Notes: generated by a model from the sequence alone, not told the origin. Shown: positions 13,979 through 64,000, counted from the first letter of the stretch. The stretch: 64,000 nt of DNA from Candidatus Omnitrophota bacterium (GCA_044225175.1 JBGAJA010000001.1:550711-614710); one strand, 5' to 3'. Program-made: numbers and translations.

Positions 13979-15073
13979 TTACCACTCTAAAGCGCCGCCT
14001 GTTTGATATTCTGTAACGCGGGTTTCGAAGAAGTTCTTTTCTTTTTTAAGGTCAATGATTTCACTCATCCAAGGAAAAGGATTGGTTGAGTTATAGACTT
14101 TTTCTAAGCGTAATTTTTCTAAACGACGATCAGCAATGTATTGTACGTATTCGCGCATCATAGGAACGTTCAATCCTAATACGCCTCGTGGTAAGCATTC
14201 CTGAGCATAATTGACCTCTAACTCAACAGCACGTTTGATTCTTTTGGTGATATATTGTGCAAATTCGGAAGTCCAGCCGTATTTATTTTCATCGATGATT
14301 GTGTTGATCAGTTCAATTCCAAAATTCATGTGAATACTTTCATCACGCAAGATATATTGAATTTGTTCGCATGTTCCAGGCATACGGTTTTGACGGCCAA
14401 AAGACAGCATAGTCACAAAGCCGCTATAGAAGAAAATTCCTTCTGTAACAACATAGAACGCAATCAAGTTATCTAAGAATTTCTGCAAGCCTTCTTTGGT
14501 TGCTAAATCTACGTTTTGATCTACGATGCCATCTGTGCAACTCATTGAGAATTCATCTTTTTCATAGATCGCTTTATTTTCACGATACATATTAAAAATT
14601 TCAGTTTCATCTAAAGATAAAGATTCAACAATGTATTGAAATGTGTGAACGTGAACAGCTTCTTCGAATGCTTGACGGAGCAAATATTGGCGGCATTCAG
14701 GATTATCAACCATTTTATAGATGGATAAAACAATATTGTTGCCCACAAGTGTTTCTGCAGTCGAAAAGAAGCCAAGGTTTCTTTTAATGACATGGCGTTC
14801 ATCATCAGTAAATGCTTTTGGGTTCTTCCACTGTTCAATATCTCTTTGCATGGAAACTTCGGTTGGCATCCATGTGTTGGCACAAGCGTCTAAATAAGAA
14901 TGCCAAGCCCATTTGTATTTAATGGGAACAAGCTGATTAACATCAACAGTACGATTATTAAGAATGATTCGTTTGTTATCCGCAGAGACTCTATCTCTGG
15001 TCATTCTCAATCCGCCATTGCATTCTTGGCCTTCTAATTTTTCTGACATTGATAAATCTCCTGTTATTGACAT
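13979..15073 (-). CDS. nrdB: Ribonucleotide-diphosphate reductase beta subunit (class I, R2)
   Basis: 364 aa with the diiron ligand motifs EEAVHVHTF and EGIFFYSGF. Confidence 0.9.
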
Positions 15074-18000
15074 GATTCACAATCTTGAACTGGTTCAGCG
15101 CTAAGCTTTGCAGTAGGCTGTTCAACCACTTGGCCTTTTTCATTGCGTTCACGTTGACCAACTACATTTCCATATTTATTAATATCGAGCGTACTTTTTT
15201 CAATACGAGTTGCACCCATAGATCGTAAGTAATAAGTTGTTTTTAGTCCTTTTTCCCAAGCGAACATATACATATCGCTAATCTTTTTTCCACTTGGTTT
15301 AGCTTGATACAGATTCAAACTTTGTCCCATATCAATCCACTTTTGACGTCGACTAGCGGCTTCAATGATCCATTCATAATCTACTTCAAAAGCAGTTGCA
15401 TATTTGGCTTTGAGATTAGCTGGAATACGTTTAATTTCTTGAACGCTTCCATCGAAGTATTTGAGGTCATCGATCATTTCTTGATCCCATAGTCCAAGTT
15501 TCTTAAGATCTTCGACTAAATATTCGTTAATAACGGTAAATTCACCAGAAAGATTGCTTTTTACGAATACATTTTTGTACATGGGTTCAATACTTTGGGT
15601 AACACCGCAGATATTACCAATTGTGGCTGTTGGGGCAATGGCCATGACAAGGCTGTTTCGAATCCCATGTGTTTTAAGAGATTGACGAATAGCATTCCAA
15701 TCCATACTTTGGCTGCGATCCATATCTAAATAATCACCACGTTCTTTGTGGAGTAATTCAATTGTGTCAATGGGCAATAAGCCTCGATCCCATTTGGAAC
15801 CTTTGTAACTAGAATATGTTCCTCGCTCTTTAGCTAATTCAATGGAACCAAGTAAAGCATAATAAGAAACAGCTTCCATGCTGCGATCAGCAAATTCAAT
15901 GGCTTCTTGGGAGGCATAACTGATATCTAGTAGATATAAAGCATCTTGAAAGCCCATGATACCCATACCGACGGGACGATGACGACTATTAGCGGTTGAT
16001 GTTTCTGCGGTGGGATAAAAATTGATGTCAATGACATTATCTAGCATGCGAACGGCAGTTGTGATGGTTTCTTTAAGCTTTTTGTGATCAATACCATCTT
16101 GAGTAACATGTGCGGTTAAATTAACAGAGCCTAAATTGCAAACGGCATTTTCTTCTTTGGAGGTATTAAGAAGAATTTCAGTACAAAGATTCGAGCTATG
16201 GACAACTCCCGCATGGTCTTGAGGAGAGCGAATGTTGGAAGGATCTTTCCAGGTGATCCATGGATGACCGGTTTCAAACACCATGGAAAGCATTTTACGC
16301 CATAATTGGACAGCAGATATAGTCCTGAAATGTTTAATCTTTCCTTCTTTAGCCATCTCTTCATATTCATGGTAGCGTTTCTCAAAAGCCTGACCATACA
16401 TGTGATGCAAATCAGGGGTTTCTGATGGGGTAAAAAGTGTCCAATCGGCGTTTGCTTTAACCCTTTTCATAAAAAGATCAGGAATCCAATTGGCTGTATG
16501 CATATCATGAGTACGACGGCGTTCATCTCCTGTATTTTTGCGAAGTTCAAGAAATTCTTCAATGTCCAAATGCCAGGCTTCTAAATATGCGCACATGGCA
16601 CCTTTACGTTTACCGCCTTGATTGACAGCTACTGCAGTATCATTGGCTACTTTCAAAAATGGGATAATTCCCTGACTCTTTCCGTTGGTTCCTTTGATAC
16701 GAGAACCCATAGCTCGAACACTTGTCCAATCGTTTCCTAAACCGCCGCTCCATTTGGAAAGCATTGCGTCATCTTGGATACATTTGAAAATGTGCCATAA
16801 ATCATCTTCAATTGTAGTTAGGAAGCATGATGACAATTGTGGATGGCGGGTTCCTGCATTGAACAGAGTTGGTGTGGATGACATAAAACGAAATGTAGAG
16901 AGGATATTATAAAACTCGATAGCGCGTTTATTTTTTTGTTCGCCTTCTTTTATGGCTAATCCCATAGCAACACGCATCCAAAAGATTTGAGGAATTTCAA
17001 TTCTCTTTTCTTGAGAATGAATAAAATAACGATCATAAAGGGTTTGTAAACCCATATAACGCAAGATGAAATCACGTTCAGGGACTAAAGCCTTAGATAA
17101 TTCTTTTAAATCAAAAGATTTTAATGCGGGATCCAAAAGTTCTAACTGACTGGCTTGAGAAATAAATTTAATAAAATATTCAGGATATTCCACGCGAATA
17201 CGTTCGAAAGAAGCATCTGTTCCTAAGGCTTCAGCATATTCTAAGAGCAACAGTAATCGAGCTGCCACAAATGAGTAATTAGGTTCTTTTTCGATAAAAC
17301 TTCGAGCCGCCATAATATTAGCTTGCGCCATTTGACGTTCCGTCATTCCATCAAAATAGCTTTTAACGGCTTCTTTAAAAAGCATGTCCACAGAAACATT
17401 AGCCAAAGACTTGCAGCATGTTTCAAATTTAAAACGAATTTCTTCTAAATCAATGGGCCGTGTTTCGCCTTTTTCGTTCTTAATAGCTAAATTTTTAACC
17501 CATTCAATAGATTCTTCTACTTGGACATGTTTGACTCTTCTTTGTTTAGCGCGTTCTTCCCTGTAAATAATATAACGTTTGGCAACATCATGATATCCCC
17601 CTGCCATAATGATCTTCTCGACAATATCTTGTATTTCTTCAATGCTGATCGATTTGCCATCAGGCCAGCGTGTTTTAATTTCTGAAGTCACCTTGTCAGA
17701 GAGTTCATGGGCTTTTTCGATGAGGATTTCATTATAAATACCTTTATTATGAGCAATCAAAGCTTTAGCAATGGCGAGGGTGATCTTTTCTTGTTTGAAA
17801 GAGACAATTTTACCATCACGTTTGATGATAGAAAAAAGTTCAAATAATTGACGACGGGAAGCATGATGACGACGGTAGCTGGCATAACGTTCAGCTACTT
17901 CTTTTTGACCGTTTTCATAAAGCTGACGAATGACTTCGTCTTGAATTTCTTCAACAGTTAGGTGAGGTTTTTGTACGCCTCGTTCCTTAAGAACGGCTAC

Positions 18001-18210
18001 TACGCAAGTAGTAATTTTATTTACATCTGTAATGTTTTCTGCAGAAAGTTCAGATTCACGAGGAAGGCCCAATTGTTCTTTGAAAGCATTAGCCACAGCA
18101 TGGGTAATTCGGTGAGGCACAAATTCAATGACTTGACCGTTACGTTTTTGTACCTTGATGTCGAAATTATTGGTTGTGACTGAAGACATCGATGGATCCT
18201 CCCTGTGCAA
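15064..18210 (-). CDS. nrdA: Ribonucleotide-diphosphate reductase alpha subunit (class I, R1) with three tandem N-terminal ATP-cone repeats
   Basis: 1048 aa. Three VxKRDG.xxxF-type ATP-cone starts are visible ([38 protein letters not shown]). It has the catalytic C/N/E region and C-terminal CESC. Confidence 0.9.
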
Positions 18211-57217: not shown

Positions 57218-60200
57218 TTATTTCAGATCCAATAAGAATTTGATATCTTCCCAATCAAGTTTTTTACCAATACTTTCTTCTGATAATACAAGCGCATCCA
57301 TGAGAAATCGTTTGCGATTTTGTAATTCTAGCATTTTTTCTTCAATTGTTCCTTTGGTAATTAAACGGTAAGCTAGTACAGAATTACTTTGACCAATACG
57401 ATGGACTCGATCAATAGCTTGATTTTCAACGGCAGGGTTCCACCAAGGTTCATAAATAATAACAGTGTCTGCTGATGTTAAATTAAGACCAACCCCTCCT
57501 ACTTTTAGACTTAGTAAAAAAACTTTTAAAGAAGAGTCTTTATTAAAGCGTTCTACTTCTTCCTGTCGATCCTTACTTGATCCATCCATGTATGCATAAG
57601 GAATCTTTTCTCGTTCCAAATACTCTTCCATTATCTTTAACATGGAAACAAATTGGCTGAAAATAAGAACTTTATGTCCTCCGGCTAATAGTTCATCCAA
57701 AGTTTCCTTTAAAAGTTCCATTTTGCCAGATACACTTCGATGCCCTAAATCAACACCAGCAATCAAAGGATGGCAGCAAATTTGCCGTAGTCTAAGAATT
57801 AATGTCAAAATCACCATTCTACTCTTTTCAAAACCATTTTTATCAACGCTTTTGCTTGCAATCTCCCGAGCTGATTCAGCCATTTTGGCATAAATCTTAG
57901 CCTGAGTAGGCTCTAATTCACAATAGGATATCTGTTCGATTTTCTCAGGCAAATCTTTAATGACATCCTTTTTGATACGTCTTAAAACAAAAGGAAGAAT
58001 TCTTGAAGAAAGCTTAGTTAATTGTTCTTTATCTTGAAATTTAGTAATAGGAATTTCATAACGCTTCTTAAACTTTTCAGCTCCCCCTAGAAATCCTGGC
58101 ATTAAAAAGTCAAAAATAGACCATAAATCCATAATGCTATTCTCAACAGGAGTTCCTGTCATAGCTAGACGCATGGAGGCCTTTAAGGATTTAGCGACTT
58201 GAGCATTTCTTGTATTACGATTCTTGATATTCTGCGCTTCATCTAAAATAACATAATTAAAATCTACTTGCTTATAAAGTTCGATATCTCTGCGCAACAA
58301 AGAATAGGAAGTGATCACAACCTGGGCCTTATTAATTTCATCAAAAAGATCCCTTCGATGATTGCCATTTAAGACCAATGTTTTCACATTAGGCATAAAT
58401 TTCTTGATTTCTTCCTGCCAGTTCCAAACTAATGTAGTTGGACAAACAACTAAAGATGGAAGCTTATTGCCTTGTTCAATTTCCATTTGAATTATGGTTA
58501 AAGCTTGTAATGTCTTTCCAAGACCCATTTCATCTGCTAAAACACCGCCAAAATTAAACTTTCTTAGGAAAGCCAGCCAATCTACCCCTTTTGTTTGATA
58601 ATCTCTTAAAACACCATTTAAAGAGGTAGGGACTGTAACCGTTTCAATAGATTGAAATCTTTTAAGTTCTTCATACGTTGCCATAACCCTTGAATCAACC
58701 GTAGACTTTAATCCATAACGCTTAATTTCTTCCATCACAAAAGGCATTTGGGCTAAATGTAATTTTTTACTATCAAATTCTTGTGACATTGCTTCAATTT
58801 GATCAAAGAATTCTCTGGGGATAGGTAGTAATTCTCCCTTCTTTAATCGAATATAATTCTGGCCTTCTAATATTGCTTTTTTAATCTTAGTGTGGGTGAT
58901 TTCTTCATCGATTCCCTCAGCTTTATAGACAGCATCAAATTCAAACCAATCAATACCACTTCCAGTCAAACGTACAGAAGGTTCAAAGAATTTATTATTA
59001 AGAAGTTTGGATTCAAAATCATTAGAGCAATGCACATCCATATCTCTTTTAAGTAAAGGAAGCTTTTGATAAACAAATCCTAAAATGTCCTCGGTTCCAG
59101 AGAGCATAAAAACCTTAGAATTCTTTCTCCACTCAAAGGAGCAGTCACGAAGAAGGTATTGAACTTTTGTATTTTCTTGATCAATATCACGGACAACCCA
59201 GCTTAATTCTTCTTGATTGTTGCTTGGTGAGAAACGTTCTAAGCATGCACTTCCTTGATAAGGATAGGCTTCTTGATTTTCATAAACAAAAGATAGCTTT
59301 CCAAGTACACAATCTTTAACGTAACTTAAATCTAAACGACATCGTAAAGTGGGCGTAATAAAATTTATATTCTTTAAACAATCATTTTCTTCAATGATTT
59401 CACAGGAACTGTTTAAAGTATTAATCACAGATGAAATAAAGTAAGGAATTTGAGGTGTATCTAGAATTTGTTCAACATTTAAGAAGTCCCTTAAAAAGGA
59501 ATATGTGATGCTTTCCTCTAGAGATTGAAAACTTAAGGAATCTTCATCAAATAACCAAACTGGATGACCTTCCTGAATATGTGTTGTCTTAAAATTTCTT
59601 TCTGGGTTCTGGGGATCTTTCAAAGAAGCTTTTACTCCCCACTGCCCTTTTTCAATTAAACGAATACTTAAGGTCAAAGATATCTTTGGTTGAACTTTAA
59701 TTTGGATCGGTTGATTTGTCTTACTGTCAACAAATTCAACACCTGGACAATTAGCAATCGTACCTAAATAAGCAGCCCATTGCATGCGTTTCATCCTAAA
59801 CTGGGGCTGCACAAAACCTCTAGCATTTGTATCGACCGTTAAAAGTTCATTAAGGAAATTTAGTACGGTCTGTTGCATGGAAGAGAACGCTGAAAATTGT
59901 GGATAATTGATATGGCGGGTACGAGCCTGATTCAAAAGGATTTTAAAATTTAAAACAGCAAATTTTTCTTCTGCATTTATCACATAAACTTTAAAAGGAA
60001 TGCTTTTGATAACTCCACCAATAAAACCATTGGTTGAAAGTACAATTCGAATAAGAGGCTTTTGGGGAGATCTATATTTGTATTCGGGTAAAAGATAATC
60101 CGTCTTTTTCTTCTTAATAATGATAGGTTTCACTACTTGAGGTAATGTTTTCTGAGGTAATGGGGCTATTTGTGAATTAATTCTTAATTGTTTTTCATCT

Positions 60201-60523
60201 AGAAAGATCAGTTTACTTACATCCACATCGGCTGTGATCGCGACATAATGGATCCAGTGCAGAAGAACTGCAACCGAATGTTTGCACATGTTGCCAAGTT
60301 TAAAAGGACATGTGCATTCCGCAAATCGAAAATTGTCTAAGCCTTTGATATGAATTCTAACATGAAATGGATCAGGCTCTGAACCTTGAACAACTCCTTC
60401 TAAATCACTATTCTTTCGTGCTATTGTCTTAACAGCACCTTTGCGATGATAACTCTTACCTCTTGCAAAAGCCATTTCACCCGCTACACGTTCTAAACTT
60501 TTTTCATCTCTAATAAATGGCAT
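57218..60523 (-). CDS. SNF2-family helicase/ATPase with an N-terminal SWIM zinc finger
   Basis: 1101 aa. The SWIM motif is CTCPFKLGNMCKHSVAVLLHW. The SNF2_N motifs are I (DEMGLGKT), II (DEAQNIKN) and the helicase C-terminus (QAIDRVHRIGQ). Its stop is 1 nt from the SulP start. Confidence 0.85.
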   Translation of the reverse strand: MPFIRDEKSLERVAGEMAFARGKSYHRKGAVKTIARKNSDLEGVVQGSEPDPFHVRIHIKGLDNFRFAECTCPFKLGNMCKHSVAVLLHWIHYVAITADVDVSKLIFLDEKQLRINSQIAPLPQKTLPQVVKPIIIKKKKTDYLLPEYKYRSPQKPLIRIVLSTNGFIGGVIKSIPFKVYVINAEEKFAVLNFKILLNQARTRHINYPQFSAFSSMQQTVLNFLNELLTVDTNARGFVQPQFRMKRMQWAAYLGTIANCPGVEFVDSKTNQPIQIKVQPKISLTLSIRLIEKGQWGVKASLKDPQNPERNFKTTHIQEGHPVWLFDEDSLSFQSLEESITYSFLRDFLNVEQILDTPQIPYFISSVINTLNSSCEIIEENDCLKNINFITPTLRCRLDLSYVKDCVLGKLSFVYENQEAYPYQGSACLERFSPSNNQEELSWVVRDIDQENTKVQYLLRDCSFEWRKNSKVFMLSGTEDILGFVYQKLPLLKRDMDVHCSNDFESKLLNNKFFEPSVRLTGSGIDWFEFDAVYKAEGIDEEITHTKIKKAILEGQNYIRLKKGELLPIPREFFDQIEAMSQEFDSKKLHLAQMPFVMEEIKRYGLKSTVDSRVMATYEELKRFQSIETVTVPTSLNGVLRDYQTKGVDWLAFLRKFNFGGVLADEMGLGKTLQALTIIQMEIEQGNKLPSLVVCPTTLVWNWQEEIKKFMPNVKTLVLNGNHRRDLFDEINKAQVVITSYSLLRRDIELYKQVDFNYVILDEAQNIKNRNTRNAQVAKSLKASMRLAMTGTPVENSIMDLWSIFDFLMPGFLGGAEKFKKRYEIPITKFQDKEQLTKLSSRILPFVLRRIKKDVIKDLPEKIEQISYCELEPTQAKIYAKMAESAREIASKSVDKNGFEKSRMVILTLILRLRQICCHPLIAGVDLGHRSVSGKMELLKETLDELLAGGHKVLIFSQFVSMLKIMEEYLEREKIPYAYMDGSSKDRQEEVERFNKDSSLKVFLLSLKVGGVGLNLTSADTVIIYEPWWNPAVENQAIDRVHRIGQSNSVLAYRLITKGTIEEKMLELQNRKRFLMDALVLSEESIGKKLDWEDIKFLLDLK

Positions 60524-60546
60524 TTGGTCCTTTGATTAAAAATTAA

Positions 60547-60578
60547 AATCCCTGCAATATGTTCTTACTGCAGGGATT
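60547..60578 (-). terminator. Hairpin AATCCCTGCA-(12 nt)-TGCAGGGATT, followed on the minus strand by TTAATTTTTAAT; it lies only ~24 nt upstream of the SNF2 start codon
   Basis: A 10-bp perfect stem read directly; the T-rich tract is on the minus strand. Confidence 0.5.
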
Positions 60579-60612
60579 ACCTATCTCTAGATGGAGATAA
60601 TCACTTTATAAC

Positions 60613-60770
60613 TGGCGGGTAGTCGTTGACGATAGGCGAACCCTACAACCCCTTGAAATACCGCTACTTATAAAAATTTATCGCAAACGAAGTACGGGGT
60701 CGCTAATATCTCTTGACCTACCCATCGACACTACCCAGCCATACCGTAAAGGTATTTTATCAAAACGGCG
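60613..60770. repeat. Copy 1 of a ~160-bp imperfect direct repeat (the first ~62 nt are nearly identical to copy 2 and the rest is about 75-80% similar)
   Basis: TGGCGGGTAGTCGTTGACGATAGGCGAACCCTACAACCCCTTGAAATACC... was aligned by eye to 62296-62455. Confidence 0.8.
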
Positions 60771-61142
60771 CTAACTATTATAATTTACAATAACCCTAAT
60801 AACTTTACCTGTCAGACCAAATTCCATTAATTCCCCAACTTTTATACCTTTCTGATTTTTGTAATGCACAACCACGCTTTTTATTCCCCACATTACCTCA
60901 ATAAGTTCAAATCTTAAATCAGGGTAAAAGTCCAGTCCTTTGGCAAAGTAAACTTGCAATGCTGCTTTGCCCTCGATTGTGCCGGATGGGATATTCATAA
61001 TCTTTTGCGCGACTGGAGAAGTCAAAACAACTTTCTCGTCATAATGCGCCATAATCGCATCCAGATTGTGTGAATTCCATCCATCAATCCAATGGCTTGC
61101 AAATTCTCTTGCTTGTTTCTCAGTAAGCATTCTTTGACTCAT
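60771..61142 (-). CDS. NTF2-like / SnoaL-like small protein (DUF4440 / ketosteroid-isomerase-like fold)
   Basis: 123 aa. The N-terminus EKQAREFASHWIDGWNSHNLDAIMAHYDEKVVL is typical of SnoaL-like / NTF2 superfamily proteins. Confidence 0.5.
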   Translation of the reverse strand: MSQRMLTEKQAREFASHWIDGWNSHNLDAIMAHYDEKVVLTSPVAQKIMNIPSGTIEGKAALQVYFAKGLDFYPDLRFELIEVMWGIKSVVVHYKNQKGIKVGELMEFGLTGKVIRVIVNYNS

Positions 61143-61217
61143 AATTCTCTCGAGACTTTAACCCAACACGCTCTTTATCTGCCGCCAGCGCCCGGCACAA
61201 TCCAGACGTTTCTCGCC

Positions 61218-62117
61218 TCACCGCACGCGTCCATCAAAATTATCCCAGACGGCCCTGGAGATGTCGGAGATGATCTTTTCATTCGTTGCGACATCCTCGC
61301 GCGAGTTGGCAATAAATACAGCAATGGCGACATGTTTACCGTCGGGTAAAGTGATAATCCCCACATCATTGACAGCTGCCGTAATTCCTTCCTTATTCGT
61401 ATCAGAGGTCCCCGTTTTATGAGCAACCGCAGTTCCTTGCGGCAACTGCCCCTTGATCCTGTTCTGCCCTGTCTTTGTTTCCGTCATCACACCCCAAAGA
61501 AAATCAAAGCTTTTACGGGATAAAATCTTCTCTTCATAAAAAATTTTAAGCAACTCGATGATAGCTACGGGAGTAGCCCAATTAGAAAACTGGACGTTCC
61601 AGTTTTTATGCATCTCTTGTTCGTTAAATTGGACGGAAAAATCCTTGATGCCGAGGCCATGTATATAATCATTTACCACCGCAGGCCCTCCGATAAGCTT
61701 CAGCAAAATGTCGCATCCGTTATTATCGCTTTGGGCCACGGTATATTTTAAAATCTCGGCCAATGACATCTTGATATCTCCATCGGGATACTTATCCCTT
61801 ATCGGGCTCCAGGTATTCGGCAAAAGATCGTTCCTGCGTATATTTATTTCCTGATCCAATGCCAAGCGGCCTTTATCCACTTCGCTCAAGACAGTCAAAG
61901 CGAGAGGGAATTTAAAAACGCTTTGCATGGGAAACTTGCTTTCCTCATTAACACCCAAAGCCTTCCTGTCCTCTATGCCAAGAATGGAAACACCAACCTC
62001 TGCTCTCATCGGCGCAACAATGCGCGAAATTTTCGCCTGCAGTGTTTCCTCCTGTGCAAAAGCCCCATGGGAAGCCAACAAGAAGACCACGTTCATTAAA
62101 CAAAATTTTTTAAACAC
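61218..62117 (-). CDS. Class A beta-lactamase, Bacteroidetes type (CepA/CblA/CfxA-like subclass)
   Basis: 299 aa with a signal peptide. It has SxxK (PMQSVFKF), SDN (AQSDNNGCD) and KTG (HKTGTSD). It is colinear with my recollection of the Bacteroides CepA-type enzymes (YPMMSVFKF..., LKYTLQQSDNNACD). The local G+C is clearly higher than in the rest of the window. Confidence 0.85.
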   Translation of the reverse strand: MFKKFCLMNVVFLLASHGAFAQEETLQAKISRIVAPMRAEVGVSILGIEDRKALGVNEESKFPMQSVFKFPLALTVLSEVDKGRLALDQEINIRRNDLLPNTWSPIRDKYPDGDIKMSLAEILKYTVAQSDNNGCDILLKLIGGPAVVNDYIHGLGIKDFSVQFNEQEMHKNWNVQFSNWATPVAIIELLKIFYEEKILSRKSFDFLWGVMTETKTGQNRIKGQLPQGTAVAHKTGTSDTNKEGITAAVNDVGIITLPDGKHVAIAVFIANSREDVATNEKIISDISRAVWDNFDGRVR

Positions 62118-62295
62118 GAATTAATTCCCTCGTTCTTTTATTCTCCTGAGGCCAACCATCCCTTTACAAGCCACATTATCGTGCCGTATAGCCGCCATCC
62201 ACCGGATAAAACCCTCCGGTCGAACTTGAGTTCGAATCCCCGTCTACTCAAGCCTAAAACGCCTTGAATCCTCGACGAAGGGTTCACCAAAAAAT

Positions 62296-62455
62296 TGGCG
62301 GGTAGTCGTGGACGATAGGCGAACCCTACAACCCCTTGAAATACCTCTACTTATAAAACTCTACCGTAGACGTAGTATGGGATCGCTGATATCTCTAGGG
62401 GAGCCAATCGACAATTCCCAACCTTACAATAAAGGTATTTTATCACAACACCGGC
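62296..62455. repeat. Copy 2 of the ~160-bp imperfect direct repeat
   Basis: TGGCGGGTAGTCGTGGACGATAGGCGAACCCTACAACCCCTTGAAATACC... The spurious 60-aa plus-strand ORF 62308..62490 lies inside it. Confidence 0.8.
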
Positions 62456-62491
62456 AAAAATCCAGCAAAATGCCCGTTTCCTGCATATAAT

Positions 62492-63718
62492 TTACAGAGA
62501 AAAAATATCCTTAAGCTGTTTTTCCCTAACCTCGGTCAACCAACACTTCCATGTGTCCTCATTCACAGAGGGATTAATAGCTGAAAATAGCTTAGCCGAG
62601 GCGTCTCTATATGGAATCCAAAGACGCTGAACAACACGCACATCATCAACCCGGGGCACGTTGTAATCATCAGCCCGCTTTTTAAGATCACCCATAACCT
62701 TCTTATAGGTTTCATTGAGTTTCTGATCTGCTTTTACAAAAGTATTTTTAGGAGATGGCTTAAATCCAGTACGAACTTTCTCAACCAAATCTAAATATTC
62801 GTTCTTTTGATCCATTTGAGACCCGACAACCCAAGCACCCCGCCCGGATCCTCCATGCCCCTCCTCATTTGATGCCTTGGAGTCAATGAATTTAACCGCT
62901 GACGCATAAGCCGATTCAAGCAATTTTCTATACTGACTGTCAATCTTTTGACCAATCAATTTCATTTTTGTATCCCGTTCTTTTTCGTCATCATCATCCG
63001 CCCTAGAAGCGCAGAACGCCATGCCACCGCCACTCGTGATATAATCGCAGATGTTGAATTCCTTAACTTTGCCCGCTTTCCAATCTTTATAAGTCGCTTC
63101 GACAGCATACTCTAATTCAGCGGGAGCCCATCCGCCACGGGATACCAATTGCAAGATTAGCTTTGGATCCGGCTTCCCAAACCGTCCCCCTTTTGAAGCA
63201 TCTTCCGCAATCCTCCAAACGTGGTACATAGCATCATCGTCATGGGGCAAAACGTCATACTTTTTGCAAAAAGCCTTCCAATCAAACTCGCCCGGTTCAA
63301 CGCTCATTTGAATCGTCTTGAGCTTCACATCCTCATCATACAATTTTATTGATGGGTTCACCTTCTTAGCTTGTTTATATACCTCAAGCGCTTTTTTAGG
63401 ATTCGCTCTTTCTAAGCTGTTTGCTCTAAATAACAGAGCATCGAGCGCATAATCCAAAGCATCTTCGTGACCTTTTTTTGCGGCCTCCGAAAAGTGATAA
63501 ATGCTTTCCTCTGGGGTCACATTATACTTATAGGCAATCGCAAAATGAGCATCTGCACTGCCCCTATTAGCGGCCTTGATATACAGCCTCTTTGCAGATT
63601 CTCTGTCGCCAGCTTCATATATTTTGTCCGCTTGCTTCAGATCTTCTTTATAATCACTTCCGCATCCGGCCAAAAAGATAGCTGACAACAATAAGAATGC
63701 AAAAATTTTAAACTTCAT
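62492..63718 (-). CDS. Lipoprotein with N-terminal Sel1/TPR-like repeats and a C-terminal DUF1311 (LprI lysozyme-inhibitor-like) domain
   Basis: 408 aa with lipobox FLAGCGS. Sel1-like units are AANRGSADAHFAIAYKY and AAKKGHEDAL. The C-terminal DQKLNETYKKV...VQRLWIPYRDASAKLF matches the DUF1311 pattern. Confidence 0.5.
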   Translation of the reverse strand: MKFKIFAFLLLSAIFLAGCGSDYKEDLKQADKIYEAGDRESAKRLYIKAANRGSADAHFAIAYKYNVTPEESIYHFSEAAKKGHEDALDYALDALLFRANSLERANPKKALEVYKQAKKVNPSIKLYDEDVKLKTIQMSVEPGEFDWKAFCKKYDVLPHDDDAMYHVWRIAEDASKGGRFGKPDPKLILQLVSRGGWAPAELEYAVEATYKDWKAGKVKEFNICDYITSGGGMAFCASRADDDDEKERDTKMKLIGQKIDSQYRKLLESAYASAVKFIDSKASNEEGHGGSGRGAWVVGSQMDQKNEYLDLVEKVRTGFKPSPKNTFVKADQKLNETYKKVMGDLKKRADDYNVPRVDDVRVVQRLWIPYRDASAKLFSAINPSVNEDTWKCWLTEVREKQLKDIFSL

Positions 63719-63720
63719 AA

Positions 63721-63978
63721 TTAATCCTTCTTTCCCTCTAAATAATCTAATATCGGTTTAAATTCCGTAATCGTGTCTATAATCTCATCTTCCAATTTAA
63801 TGGGCTCTGTTAACACTTTCGATCCCCTGTCAATCGAGTATCTAAAATGTATGCCGGGAGCTCCGGGATCCTTATCCGCCTTTTTTAACACGTCTCCTAA
63901 GTAAATCACGTCCTGCTTATTTGCGATGTCACTCAGCTTCATATCAAAAAATTTCACCCATTTTTCGTTCCCGGGCAT
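63721..63978 (-). CDS. Hypothetical small protein
   Basis: 85 aa with no motif recognised. It is 2 nt upstream of the lipoprotein gene. Confidence 0.3.
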   Translation of the reverse strand: MPGNEKWVKFFDMKLSDIANKQDVIYLGDVLKKADKDPGAPGIHFRYSIDRGSKVLTEPIKLEDEIIDTITEFKPILDYLEGKKD

Positions 63979-64000
63979 AATGCGCTTTCCAGCCCGTGGC

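Follow-up and report, generated by a model that had tools for sequence, protein, structure and literature searches.

How a class A beta-lactamase gene (bla), flanked by two copies of a repeat of about 160 nucleotides (nt), came to lie just upstream of a SNF2 helicase gene is the question raised by a 64,000-nt stretch of bacterial DNA (JBGAJA010000001.1:550711-614710 of assembly GCA_044225175.1). The whole of this stretch is called the window here. A preliminary description of the window had regarded the two repeats as the ends of one horizontally acquired resistance cassette. Our analysis suggests a different anatomy. It is likely that the region is an array of mobile units of a large serine recombinase (LSR) family placed at a host tRNA-Ser gene, and that bla belongs to a recombinase-less, non-autonomous cassette of this array. 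The term unit denotes a left end (LE), the cargo genes and a right end (RE), and the RE is the ~160-nt repeat itself.

Boundaries and contexts of the beta-lactamase unit

Comparison of the bla loci by blastn revealed that the DNA common to them corresponds to window 62301..60616, a stretch of 1,686 bp with 98.3-100% identity. This bla unit contains a leader or LE of about 180 nt, bla, a SnoaL gene and repeat copy A; repeat copy B is outside. Exact look-ups of the bla and SnoaL proteins returned many contigs which possess the same gene pair with differing neighbours, and the 1,686-bp unit was found in at least 9 different junction contexts. The boundary at 60616 was observed in at least 12 loci by blastn, and the LE was identical in every context. 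Upstream of the unit is either another RE or the 3' end of a tRNA-Ser gene with the anticodon GCT, CGA or TGA (the last in L044). The unit directly follows a tRNA-Ser in L003, L009-L011, L013, L014, L016, L029, L044 and L064, and on this side the left junction, marked by a slash here and below, reads ...GGGTTCGAATCCC..CCTCTCCG/CCAATTTTTTGG (elsewhere given as ...CCTCTCCG/CCAATTTTTT). Downstream, at least 9 unrelated flanks were found, and the break is always after ...ACTACCCG (unit end ...CGTCAACGACTACCCG). Some of these flanks start with CCA and others lack it, therefore the join is at the tRNA discriminator G and CCG alone is shared. In the window, the crossover lies within the shared CCG (60616-60618) and the host flank starts with CCA (60613-60615). 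The window from 60616 to 64000 (3,385 bp) is 100% identical to contig CAZWOH010000001.1, whose downstream flank differs. No terminal inverted repeats or target duplications were found at the repeat. The near-identity of the bla unit across many contexts indicates recent movement, and the aligned loci thus point to a segment that has moved recently as a unit.

The features of the region are as follows.

57218..60523, minus strand: host gene of a SNF2/SWIM helicase, the nearest one downstream of the array (Pfam SNF2-rel_dom, Helicase_C, SNF2_assoc, SWIM)
60547..60578, minus strand: terminator-like hairpin in the host flank, a 13-pair stem followed by the T-rich tail TTAATTTTTA
60613..60618, minus strand: right junction (attR-type), reading ...ACTACCCG/CCAGTT on the minus strand; cassette identity stops at 60616
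60616..60775, minus strand: repeat copy A, the RE of the bla unit; its minus strand has a putative half attachment site of P type, AGGGTTCGCC-N17-CG
60613-60771, plus strand: remnant of the predicted LSR C-terminal tail in copy A, reading WRVVVDDRRTLQPLEIPLLIKIYRKRSTGS...
60771..61142, minus strand: cargo gene 2, SnoaL_2/NTF2-like, 123 aa (PF12680)
61218..62117, minus strand: cargo gene 1, predicted class A beta-lactamase of subclass A2, 299 aa (NF012099; PF13354)
62118..62298, minus strand: LE of the bla unit, class 1, starting CCAATTTTTTGGTGAACCCTTCGTCGAGG; its motif GGTGAACCCT is an inverted copy of the RE motif AGGGTTCGCC
62299..62301, minus strand: left junction, a shared CCG in which, by the junction comparison, copy B ends and the bla unit starts
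62299..62460, minus strand: repeat copy B, the RE of the preceding unit; its tail frame is 62296-62487 on the plus strand
62492..64000, minus strand: end of the preceding unit, comprising a 408-aa lipoprotein-like gene of LprI/DUF1311-TPR type (62492-63718) and a 421-aa gene of which the 3' part is inside the window

All genes near the bla locus are on the minus strand. In gene direction, the 408-aa gene (63718..62492) is followed by copy B, about 180 nt of non-coding DNA, bla (62117..61218), the SnoaL_2/NTF2 gene (61142..60771), copy A, the hairpin (60578..60547) and the SNF2 helicase gene (60523..57218). A repeat search of the window found one repeat family of 166 nt (60601-60766 and 62284-62449) with an identity of 82%, and pairwise alignment of copy A with copy B gave 86% column identity. 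A 49-nt core (60614-60662 / 62297-62345) shows a single base difference and is unique to the two copies within the window, with a chance expectation of none.

The 299-aa bla protein, which is NCBI entry HNA62580.1, matched NF012099 (class A, subclass A2) with 401.4 bits against a cut-off of 320 and NF033103 (class A) with 317 against a cut-off of 200, and Pfam PF13354 also matched. The SVFK, SDN and KTG motifs are all visible in the translation and the N-terminus is signal-peptide-like. None of the named allele families CGA/CIA, TLA, VEB, PER, CepA, CblA and CfxA was reached at its own cut-off. Relatives of the protein in the PDB are 6pq8 and PER-1/2, and the nearest plasmid gene is blaVEB with about 64% nucleotide identity to bla. 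By sequence membership the product is thus a predicted beta-lactamase of class A, subclass A2. The exact sequence of the SnoaL protein was found in 379 indexed blocks of the contig collection, with 221 contigs.

The G+C content (GC) of the 1,686-bp unit is 0.444, against 0.361 +/- 0.029 (maximum 0.423) for host windows of the same size. At third codon positions (GC3), bla has 0.513 against 0.284 +/- 0.041 (maximum 0.398) for 43 host genes, and the SnoaL gene has 0.347, which is not clearly atypical. The stretch of high G+C extends from about 61000 to the window end, past copy B, and the region of the 408-aa gene (62492-64000) shows a GC3 of 0.421.

Much of the preliminary description agrees with these results. 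Its two direct repeats of ~160 bp, near-identical over the first ~62 nt and divergent in the rest, its class A enzyme of Bacteroidetes type (here subclass A2) and its NTF2-like gene were all recovered. A G+C-rich segment outside the host range was also found, but it extends beyond the repeats, and GC3, which bears on the codon-usage check proposed there, is atypical for bla and not clearly so for the SnoaL gene. The occurrence in many contexts and the atypical composition bear out a horizontally acquired, resistance-type cassette just upstream of SNF2. The repeats, on the other hand, are not the two ends of one cassette, as copy A ends the bla unit and copy B ends the preceding one, and in place of a left end matching the repeat the bla unit has a different one (62118-62298). 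The cassette reading is therefore partly supported, being right in substance and wrong on anatomy, and the observation behind it is confirmed.

Recombinase genes and attachment sites

The strand of the RE opposite to the cargo is an open frame in nearly all of about 50 RE variants and encodes the conserved peptide (W)RVVVDGRRTLQPLEIPLLIKIHRKRSMGWLIALDEP.... Third codon positions of this tail frame are 2-3 times more variable than the others, with a codon-position entropy of 0.33/0.23/0.59. The synonymous fraction is 0.41-0.43 in the tail frame compared to 0.10-0.19 in the other two frames of the same strand; one frame of the opposite strand, which shares third positions with the tail frame, also reaches 0.33-0.43. 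Insertions of 21 and 33 nt in the RE preserve the tail frame. The first ~60 nt of the RE are invariant at every codon position, which points to an extra constraint at the DNA level. A conserved start is missing from the tail frame, whose beginning coincides with the junction.

The origin of this frame is indicated by loci in which LSR sequence precedes it in frame. In L160 (P0044) the C-terminal region of an LSR runs in frame into the tail (...SKLIDMYLEGSISLEEYQ...KEFLEKIGSNFILKERRLNFS...LNW/RVVVD), and P0045 is likewise continuous from the LSR C-terminal region to the tail. P0045 shows 73% identity with P0048 over 152 aa, the last residues of P0048, and this similarity ends at the junction W/R. 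P0048 contains PF07508 (Recombinase) and PF13408 (Zn_ribbon_recom), and the homologues are annotated 'recombinase family protein [Ca. Omnitrophica]'. This in-frame continuity identifies the RE as the predicted tail of an LSR.

Two other candidates for the repeat were rejected. For a small independent gene (an excisionase-like 'orfX') there was no Pfam match, the homologues of 51-103 aa had non-conserved N-termini and the GTG start was absent in about 6 of 50 variants; the LSR tail fits better. A tRNA-like or structured RNA, or an RNA-mediated origin (RNase Z / reverse transcriptase), had been suggested by the boundaries at the discriminator base. It was dropped, as there was no Rfam match to the repeat even at E<=10, no covariation and no reverse transcriptase, and the periodicity is that of a coding sequence. 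RNAalifold on 28 diverse RE variants gave no consensus structure and zero covariation, and ARAGORN found no tRNA in the repeats. As a separate observation, G+C-rich insertions of 21, 33 and 63 nt (e.g. GAAGTCCTGAGCAAGCGGAGCGAGCCGAAGGAT) occur at one spot of the RE, between GGGTTG[CT] and AGGGTTCG. They are carried by L055 (RE end at 6993), L074 and L047 and by the proteins P0019 and P0032; all are multiples of three, and L047 has an additional later frameshift.

Recombinase genes next to tRNA-Ser genes showed the other form of the gene end. In L203 the order is a gene with an XRE-type helix-turn-helix, an open reading frame (ORF) with a Resolvase domain (PF00239) and a Recombinase/Zn-ribbon ORF. 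The 3' end of this last ORF encodes ...APYKNW/RRGRDLNS, and from TGG/CGG onwards it is antisense tRNA-Ser(GCT). The same arrangement is present in L204 at tRNA-Ser(TGA). In L202 an antisense tRNA-Ser-like tail follows the junction, before a run of N, and ARAGORN calls no tRNA there. As the integrated LSR gene runs into antisense tRNA-Ser at the same join, the attachment site of the element (attP) is placed inside the LSR gene.

Some further observations concern these recombinase loci. Just upstream of the LSR gene start of L203 (941-1072, minus strand) is an inverted partial copy of an LSR C-terminus with 44 residues and 64% identity, possibly left behind by a further unit. In L202, which comes from an Omnitrophica metagenome-assembled genome (MAG), an RtcB gene (6642-7089) was noted close to the LSR locus; it has 1,408 residues, contains two intein-splicing regions and matches LAGLIDADG faintly. 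The only intact LSRs met in the search within 8 kb of the repeats, of 484 and 491 aa, were found in L092 (6312-7766) and L186 (5012-6487; oriented coordinates in both) and belong to a different element. Their last ~21 codons are antisense tRNA-Asn(GTT), so the overlap of a recombinase gene with the tRNA that it targets also exists outside the tRNA-Ser family.

Two classes of left ends were distinguished. The class-2 LE (CCATTGTTGACGCTCAGGCGAACCCT) is an inverted copy of the RE end (AGGGTTCGCC-N17-CG), and RE and class-2 LE combine into an imperfect palindrome about 55 bp long. The bla unit has an LE of class 1 (CCAATTTTTTGGTGAACCCT), and the same LE start motif follows tRNA-Ser or RE in other units. 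Counted from the discriminator G, the motif GGGTTCG occupies positions -27..-21 in the RE; in tRNA-Ser its positions are -22..-16, i.e. 5 bp nearer to the crossover, and in the inner 14 nt 9-10 positions of RE and tRNA-Ser are alike in register. In serine integrases the outer motif is 5 bp nearer to the centre in the host site (attB) than in attP and the inner half-site is in register (PMC3783163). The GGGTTCG spacing is consistent with this attB/attP rule as far as aligned sites can tell; conservation does not extend to the right half of attB. The central dinucleotide may be CC.

From these data the following course of events is proposed. An array would lie between SNF2 and a host tRNA-Ser gene located beyond the window end, and positions 60616 to 64000 would represent its distal part. 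The element family, mainly of Ca. Omnitrophota, would encode an LSR which targets the 3' end of any tRNA-Ser gene, with strand exchange at CC/CG beside the discriminator base. RE and LE would be the two halves of attP, the left half with the LSR tail being the RE and the right half the LE. In the attP configuration the LSR gene would end with the RE tail of ~55 residues, and in the integrated form with the antisense-tRNA tail. With attP inside the 3' end of the LSR gene, the RE would hold the last 53-64 LSR codons on the strand opposite to the cargo, and the integrated LSR gene would read into antisense tRNA-Ser. The bla unit would have lost its LSR gene and thus be a non-autonomous cassette. 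An LSR acting in trans, with a directionality factor, may excise and re-insert it, and arrays may grow through successive insertions at the tRNA-proximal site. The expected empty site is tRNA-Ser...CTCTCCG-CCAGTTATAAAG, and in the expected circular junction the end of RE(A) would be joined to CCAATTTTTTGGTGAACC. This proposal is carried by DNA and protein comparisons, which show where the units end, that they target tRNA-Ser, that they occur in multiple contexts, that the frame of the RE is continuous with that of the LSR, and how the half-sites are spaced.

Search of the window by tblastn with the family LSR found nothing, so the bla unit does not qualify as an autonomous element. Several results weigh against the proposed LSR array. 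Clustering and motif scans found no LSR in the 8-kb flanks of RE-bearing loci except remnants. A full-length LSR with the RVVVD tail was not found among 1.84 billion representatives, where the matches were mostly fragments; close members of the LSR family are likewise mostly fragments, and the L203 gene is split in two ORFs. At the DNA level the bla LE resembled the LSR 3' end no more than shuffled controls did. Canonical recombination of attP with attB does not by itself explain the RE/LE junctions of the arrays, and it leaves the attB-like spacing of class-1 left ends unexplained. The excised form is unsampled in the data, and the link of the array to a chlamydial chromosome is a single MAG contig.

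Host, insertion site and alternative explanations

The NCBI label of the bla and SnoaL proteins of the window is a Rhabdochlamydiaceae MAG. The window also encodes an NrdA of 1,048 aa (15064-18210, minus strand) which narrowly missed the cut-off of 1,350 bits for NF009029/PRK12365 with a score of 1,347; we take its length and triple ATP-cone layout to be of the chlamydial type. Genes for TreY, a trehalase-like protein, MenE and several histidine kinases are located near NrdA. Over the window, the minus strand holds 45 of the 46 ORFs of at least 150 aa, the cumulative GC skew declines continuously beyond about 40 kb, and the G+C of the host part steps from ~0.40 (1-25 kb) to ~0.33 (25-60 kb). 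Orthologues of the SNF2 protein are 67-79% identical to it. One of them (74%) is labelled Omnitrophota, which casts some doubt on the taxonomic label of the host.

A relative of the host region gave information on the insertion site. In L209, whose SNF2 is 73% identical, tRNA-Ser(GGA) lies 200 nt upstream of SNF2 on the same strand with no insertion, and from its sequence and position this site is the predicted empty target. Synteny differs in the other SNF2 relatives, and a metagenome scan for the host empty site gave 0 matches. On the host side, the Logan contig L017 is an independent assembly. It encodes the exact SNF2 protein and starts at window 60618 with CCGCCAGTT (CCG/CCAGTT). A start at this position is what a branch in the assembly graph would produce, and it would fit coexisting occupied and empty alleles. 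The hairpin at 60547-60578 is present in L017 too, therefore it belongs to the host flank and not to the cassette; the host tRNA-Ser probably had it as its own terminator.

These results touch the remaining points of the preliminary description. The terminator hairpin at the next gene is real, with 13 pairs, but it is host DNA. As to the empty site in related strains, which had been named as a check, L209 has the predicted empty target upstream of SNF2. The chlamydia-like host is in line with the NCBI label and with the 1,048-aa NrdA. The lack of an integrase in the window was confirmed, but the repeats themselves are predicted to be the LSR 3' tail with an attachment half-site, which supplies the mechanism missing from that description.

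The alternative which survives best is a partial assembly chimera. Here a co-occurring Omnitrophota genome would be the source of the bla unit or, failing that, of what precedes it (copy B and the 408-aa gene), and this DNA would have been joined to the Rhabdochlamydiaceae contig through a 1.7-kb exact repeat. The join between RE(A) and SNF2 bears directly on it. This join probably comes from real reads and an assembler artefact is unlikely, because flank and RE share 6 nt only (CCGCCA), too short an overlap for a k-mer mis-join, and because copy A carries rare variant bases specific to the bla unit (CCTATCGTCAACG). On the side of a chimera are the jump in G+C exactly at the RE boundary, the 100% identity of 60616-64000 to CAZWOH010000001.1 with its other downstream flank, the end of L017 at the junction, the assignment of all other hosts to Omnitrophota or similar groups and the SNF2 orthologue with the Omnitrophota label. 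However, SNF2, SulP and the 408-aa gene are together on one contig of 819,945 nt, and the tRNA-Ser upstream of the L209 SNF2 is the exact expected target. We consider a chimera unlikely, and it would leave the nature of the element unchanged.

The other alternatives concern the element itself, and all are very improbable. An island of a tyrosine integrase at a tRNA gene, in which the repeats would be duplicated partial tRNA sequences (attL/attR), is suggested by the insertion at a tRNA 3' end and by the resemblance of the RE end to a tRNA 3' half (GGGTTCG...CCCGCCA), and such islands exist, e.g. tycheposons. Only 3 nt (CCG) are shared at the crossover here, against a typical overlap plus tRNA copy of 15-50 nt or more. 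The repeats are not tRNA copies according to ARAGORN and Rfam, the frame across the site is that of a serine recombinase, and no tyrosine recombinase turned up in the flanks of RE-bearing loci, leaving this reading with a very small probability.

Integron gene cassettes are slightly less probable still. The repeats would then be attC sites which act as single-strand folds for the tyrosine integrase IntI. No RYYYAAC/GTTRRRY core sites are present and the join is CCG/CCA. A single RE sequence can form a long imperfect hairpin, but the z-scores of single-sequence folds are weak (-0.2 to -2.7) and RNAalifold found neither conserved structure nor covariation in the 28 variants. Integrons would have in common with these units a single conserved site in each, the tandem arrangement, resistance cargo and a boundary which falls within the site. 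The RE is, however, coding on the other strand and continuous with the LSR gene, no intI was seen in the flanks of RE-bearing loci, and the arrays start at tRNA-Ser and not at attI.

Least probable of all is that the repeat, simply present twice, is a gene for a structured non-coding RNA, tRNA-like or regulatory, or a repeat of the miniature inverted-repeat transposable element type. Its length of ~160 nt, intergenic position, wide conservation and acceptor-like GGGTAGT/ACTACCC pairing followed by G and CCA would suit this, but it has no Rfam family (E<=10), covariation, terminal inverted repeats or target duplications, shows three-base periodicity of substitutions and frame-keeping indels, and travels with the cargo as the end of a defined unit.

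Cargo, distribution and related systems

A degenerate RE pattern found 57 stretches among species-representative genomes, nearly all of them MAGs of Ca. Omnitrophota. The other labels were uncultured Planctomycetales/Planctomycetia (some), Aminicenantes (2), Elusimicrobia (1) and Saccharibacteria (1), and the RE-bearing genome contigs include sizes of 0.39-1.98 Mb. The same pattern gave more than 120 stretches in metagenomes and 0 matches in viral contigs. In about half of the genome loci a tRNA-Ser gene of any isoacceptor is located 0.9-3 kb upstream on the same strand. The bla unit is present in three Omnitrophota MAGs, HK-STAS-OMNI-1/2/3, which from their naming are presumably from activated sludge. 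Its beta-lactamase recurs unchanged in numerous further genomes, the majority of them from Ca. Omnitrophota. On the 505-kb contig of HK-STAS-OMNI-2 (L044 2059-2955) bla is split into several ORFs, either as a decayed copy or through long-read indel errors.

Across the units, the cargo includes the bla/SnoaL pair, a class-D-like beta-lactamase, methyltransferase pairs and many unknowns; further proteins resemble the Bro-N and GIY-YIG families by the look of the sequence alone. The class-D-like gene (NF012161, 215 bits, below the cut-off of 250) is in the unit adjoining the bla unit in L002 (2497-3291). It is also found in L007, L008, L009 and L035, upstream or downstream of the bla unit depending on the contig, so two beta-lactamase cassettes share the same arrays. 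Among the first 81 loci, 9 have a GIY-YIG-looking protein of ~80-110 aa directly next to a tRNA-Ser gene or a repeat end; L034, L042, L049, L054, L063, L072 and L081 are examples.

The unit preceding the bla unit (L018 4166-11227) has genes of 76 (DUF2188), 368, 883, 185, 421 and 408 aa with almost no Pfam matches. This gene block recurs in L019-L024, L051 and L079, several Omnitrophota contigs, and is terminated by an RE each time; an RE of the copy B type follows the 408-aa gene in L001, L015, L018, L019 and L023. PADLOC gave zero matches on five genes of the preceding unit, therefore they were not called defence genes.

Serine-recombinase cassette elements are an already known kind. In staphylococci, SCCmec resistance cassettes are placed by LSRs at the 3' end of a conserved housekeeping gene (rlmH). 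Staphylococcal cassette chromosome (SCC) elements form tandem composites, and pseudo-SCC elements or cis-mobilizable elements (CIMEs) without ccr are flanked by the same att sites and thought to be moved in trans. The bla unit is similar to these in being recombinase-less, site-specific, part of a tandem array and loaded with resistance cargo. Like a pseudo-SCC or CIME, it appears from the compared junctions to have at its ends the att half-sites of the autonomous elements and to occupy the target which these use. It differs in the target, which is tRNA-Ser of all isoacceptors and not rlmH, and in the hosts, which are Ca. Omnitrophota and a Rhabdochlamydiaceae MAG. Apparently one LSR is used here in contrast to the CcrA/CcrB pair, a comparison made by features and not by Ccr sequence, and attP would be within the LSR frame so that every RE carries the conserved recombinase tail.

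An attachment site inside a gene is also known. In SSV1-type archaeal integrases and in the integration-dependent immunity of mycobacteriophages, tyrosine integrases use an attP inside the int or repressor gene. There as here the attachment site is in an ORF, integration alters or splits the product and excision restores it. The difference is that only the last ~55 codons of a serine recombinase would be swapped here for an antisense-tRNA tail. The integrases of LI/A118, Bxb1 and phiC31 (PMC3783163) appear to share with the present family a minimal crossover identity, an attP of the form of an imperfect palindrome of ~50 bp, a common outer motif 5 bp nearer to the centre in attB and an inner half-site in register. 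Judged on sequence only, the present family departs from them in an attB right half (the downstream flank of the tRNA) which is not conserved and in two kinds of LE with different spacing.

Tycheposons of Prochlorococcus have a lineage-specific tyrosine recombinase, partial-tRNA repeats and replication modules, and LSRs were restricted to a minority of the elements studied there (bioRxiv 10.1101/2020.12.28.424599). They resemble the arrays described here as cargo elements at specific tRNA genes, in which successive insertions push older ones outward and islands contain degenerate recombinase fragments and att remnants. With a serine recombinase and repeats which are not tRNA fragments, the present elements are not tycheposons. 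Integron cassettes are similarly small, mostly promoter-less units with one 3' recombination module, arranged in arrays with resistance or unknown cargo. The attC structure, core sites and IntI are missing here, and in their place the sequences predict serine-recombinase chemistry on double-stranded sites with tRNA-Ser instead of attI.

What distinguishes the present family is the tRNA-Ser target, an attP in the recombinase gene, Omnitrophota as main hosts and the apparent spread to a chlamydial genome. No description of a tRNA-Ser/LSR cassette system was found in the searchable literature. A more far-reaching claim, that a previously undescribed 'cassette chromosome' of Omnitrophota has reached a chlamydial genome and combines a tail swap, two LE kinds and cross-phylum reach, is tentative, and taken jointly its parts are doubtful. 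In the tail swap, integration would exchange the ~55-residue LSR C-terminus for the antisense-tRNA tail and might act as an integration-dependent switch of activity or directionality. Of the two LE kinds, one has attP-like and the other attB-like spacing, and attB-like ends of recombinase-less cassettes may regenerate the target beside the tRNA. Such regenerated targets could allow an integron-like growth of arrays. The reach would consist in identical beta-lactamase cassettes across phyla, up to the obligate intracellular Rhabdochlamydiaceae.

For the biology of these organisms, the proposed LSR array would provide a concrete route of gene transfer in uncultured Ca. Omnitrophota, by which units of 1-7 kb or more may enter any tRNA-Ser gene. 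An LSR gene which holds its own attP, together with a natural attB as compact as tRNA-Ser, may be of mechanistic and possibly of biotechnological interest. The presence of the bla unit in three Omnitrophota MAGs and in a Rhabdochlamydiaceae MAG suggests a resistance reservoir in wastewater and the environment with cross-phylum reach. If the chlamydial link is confirmed, an intracellular chlamydia would still be able to acquire such cassettes, and this would raise the question of the role of a secreted beta-lactamase in chlamydia.

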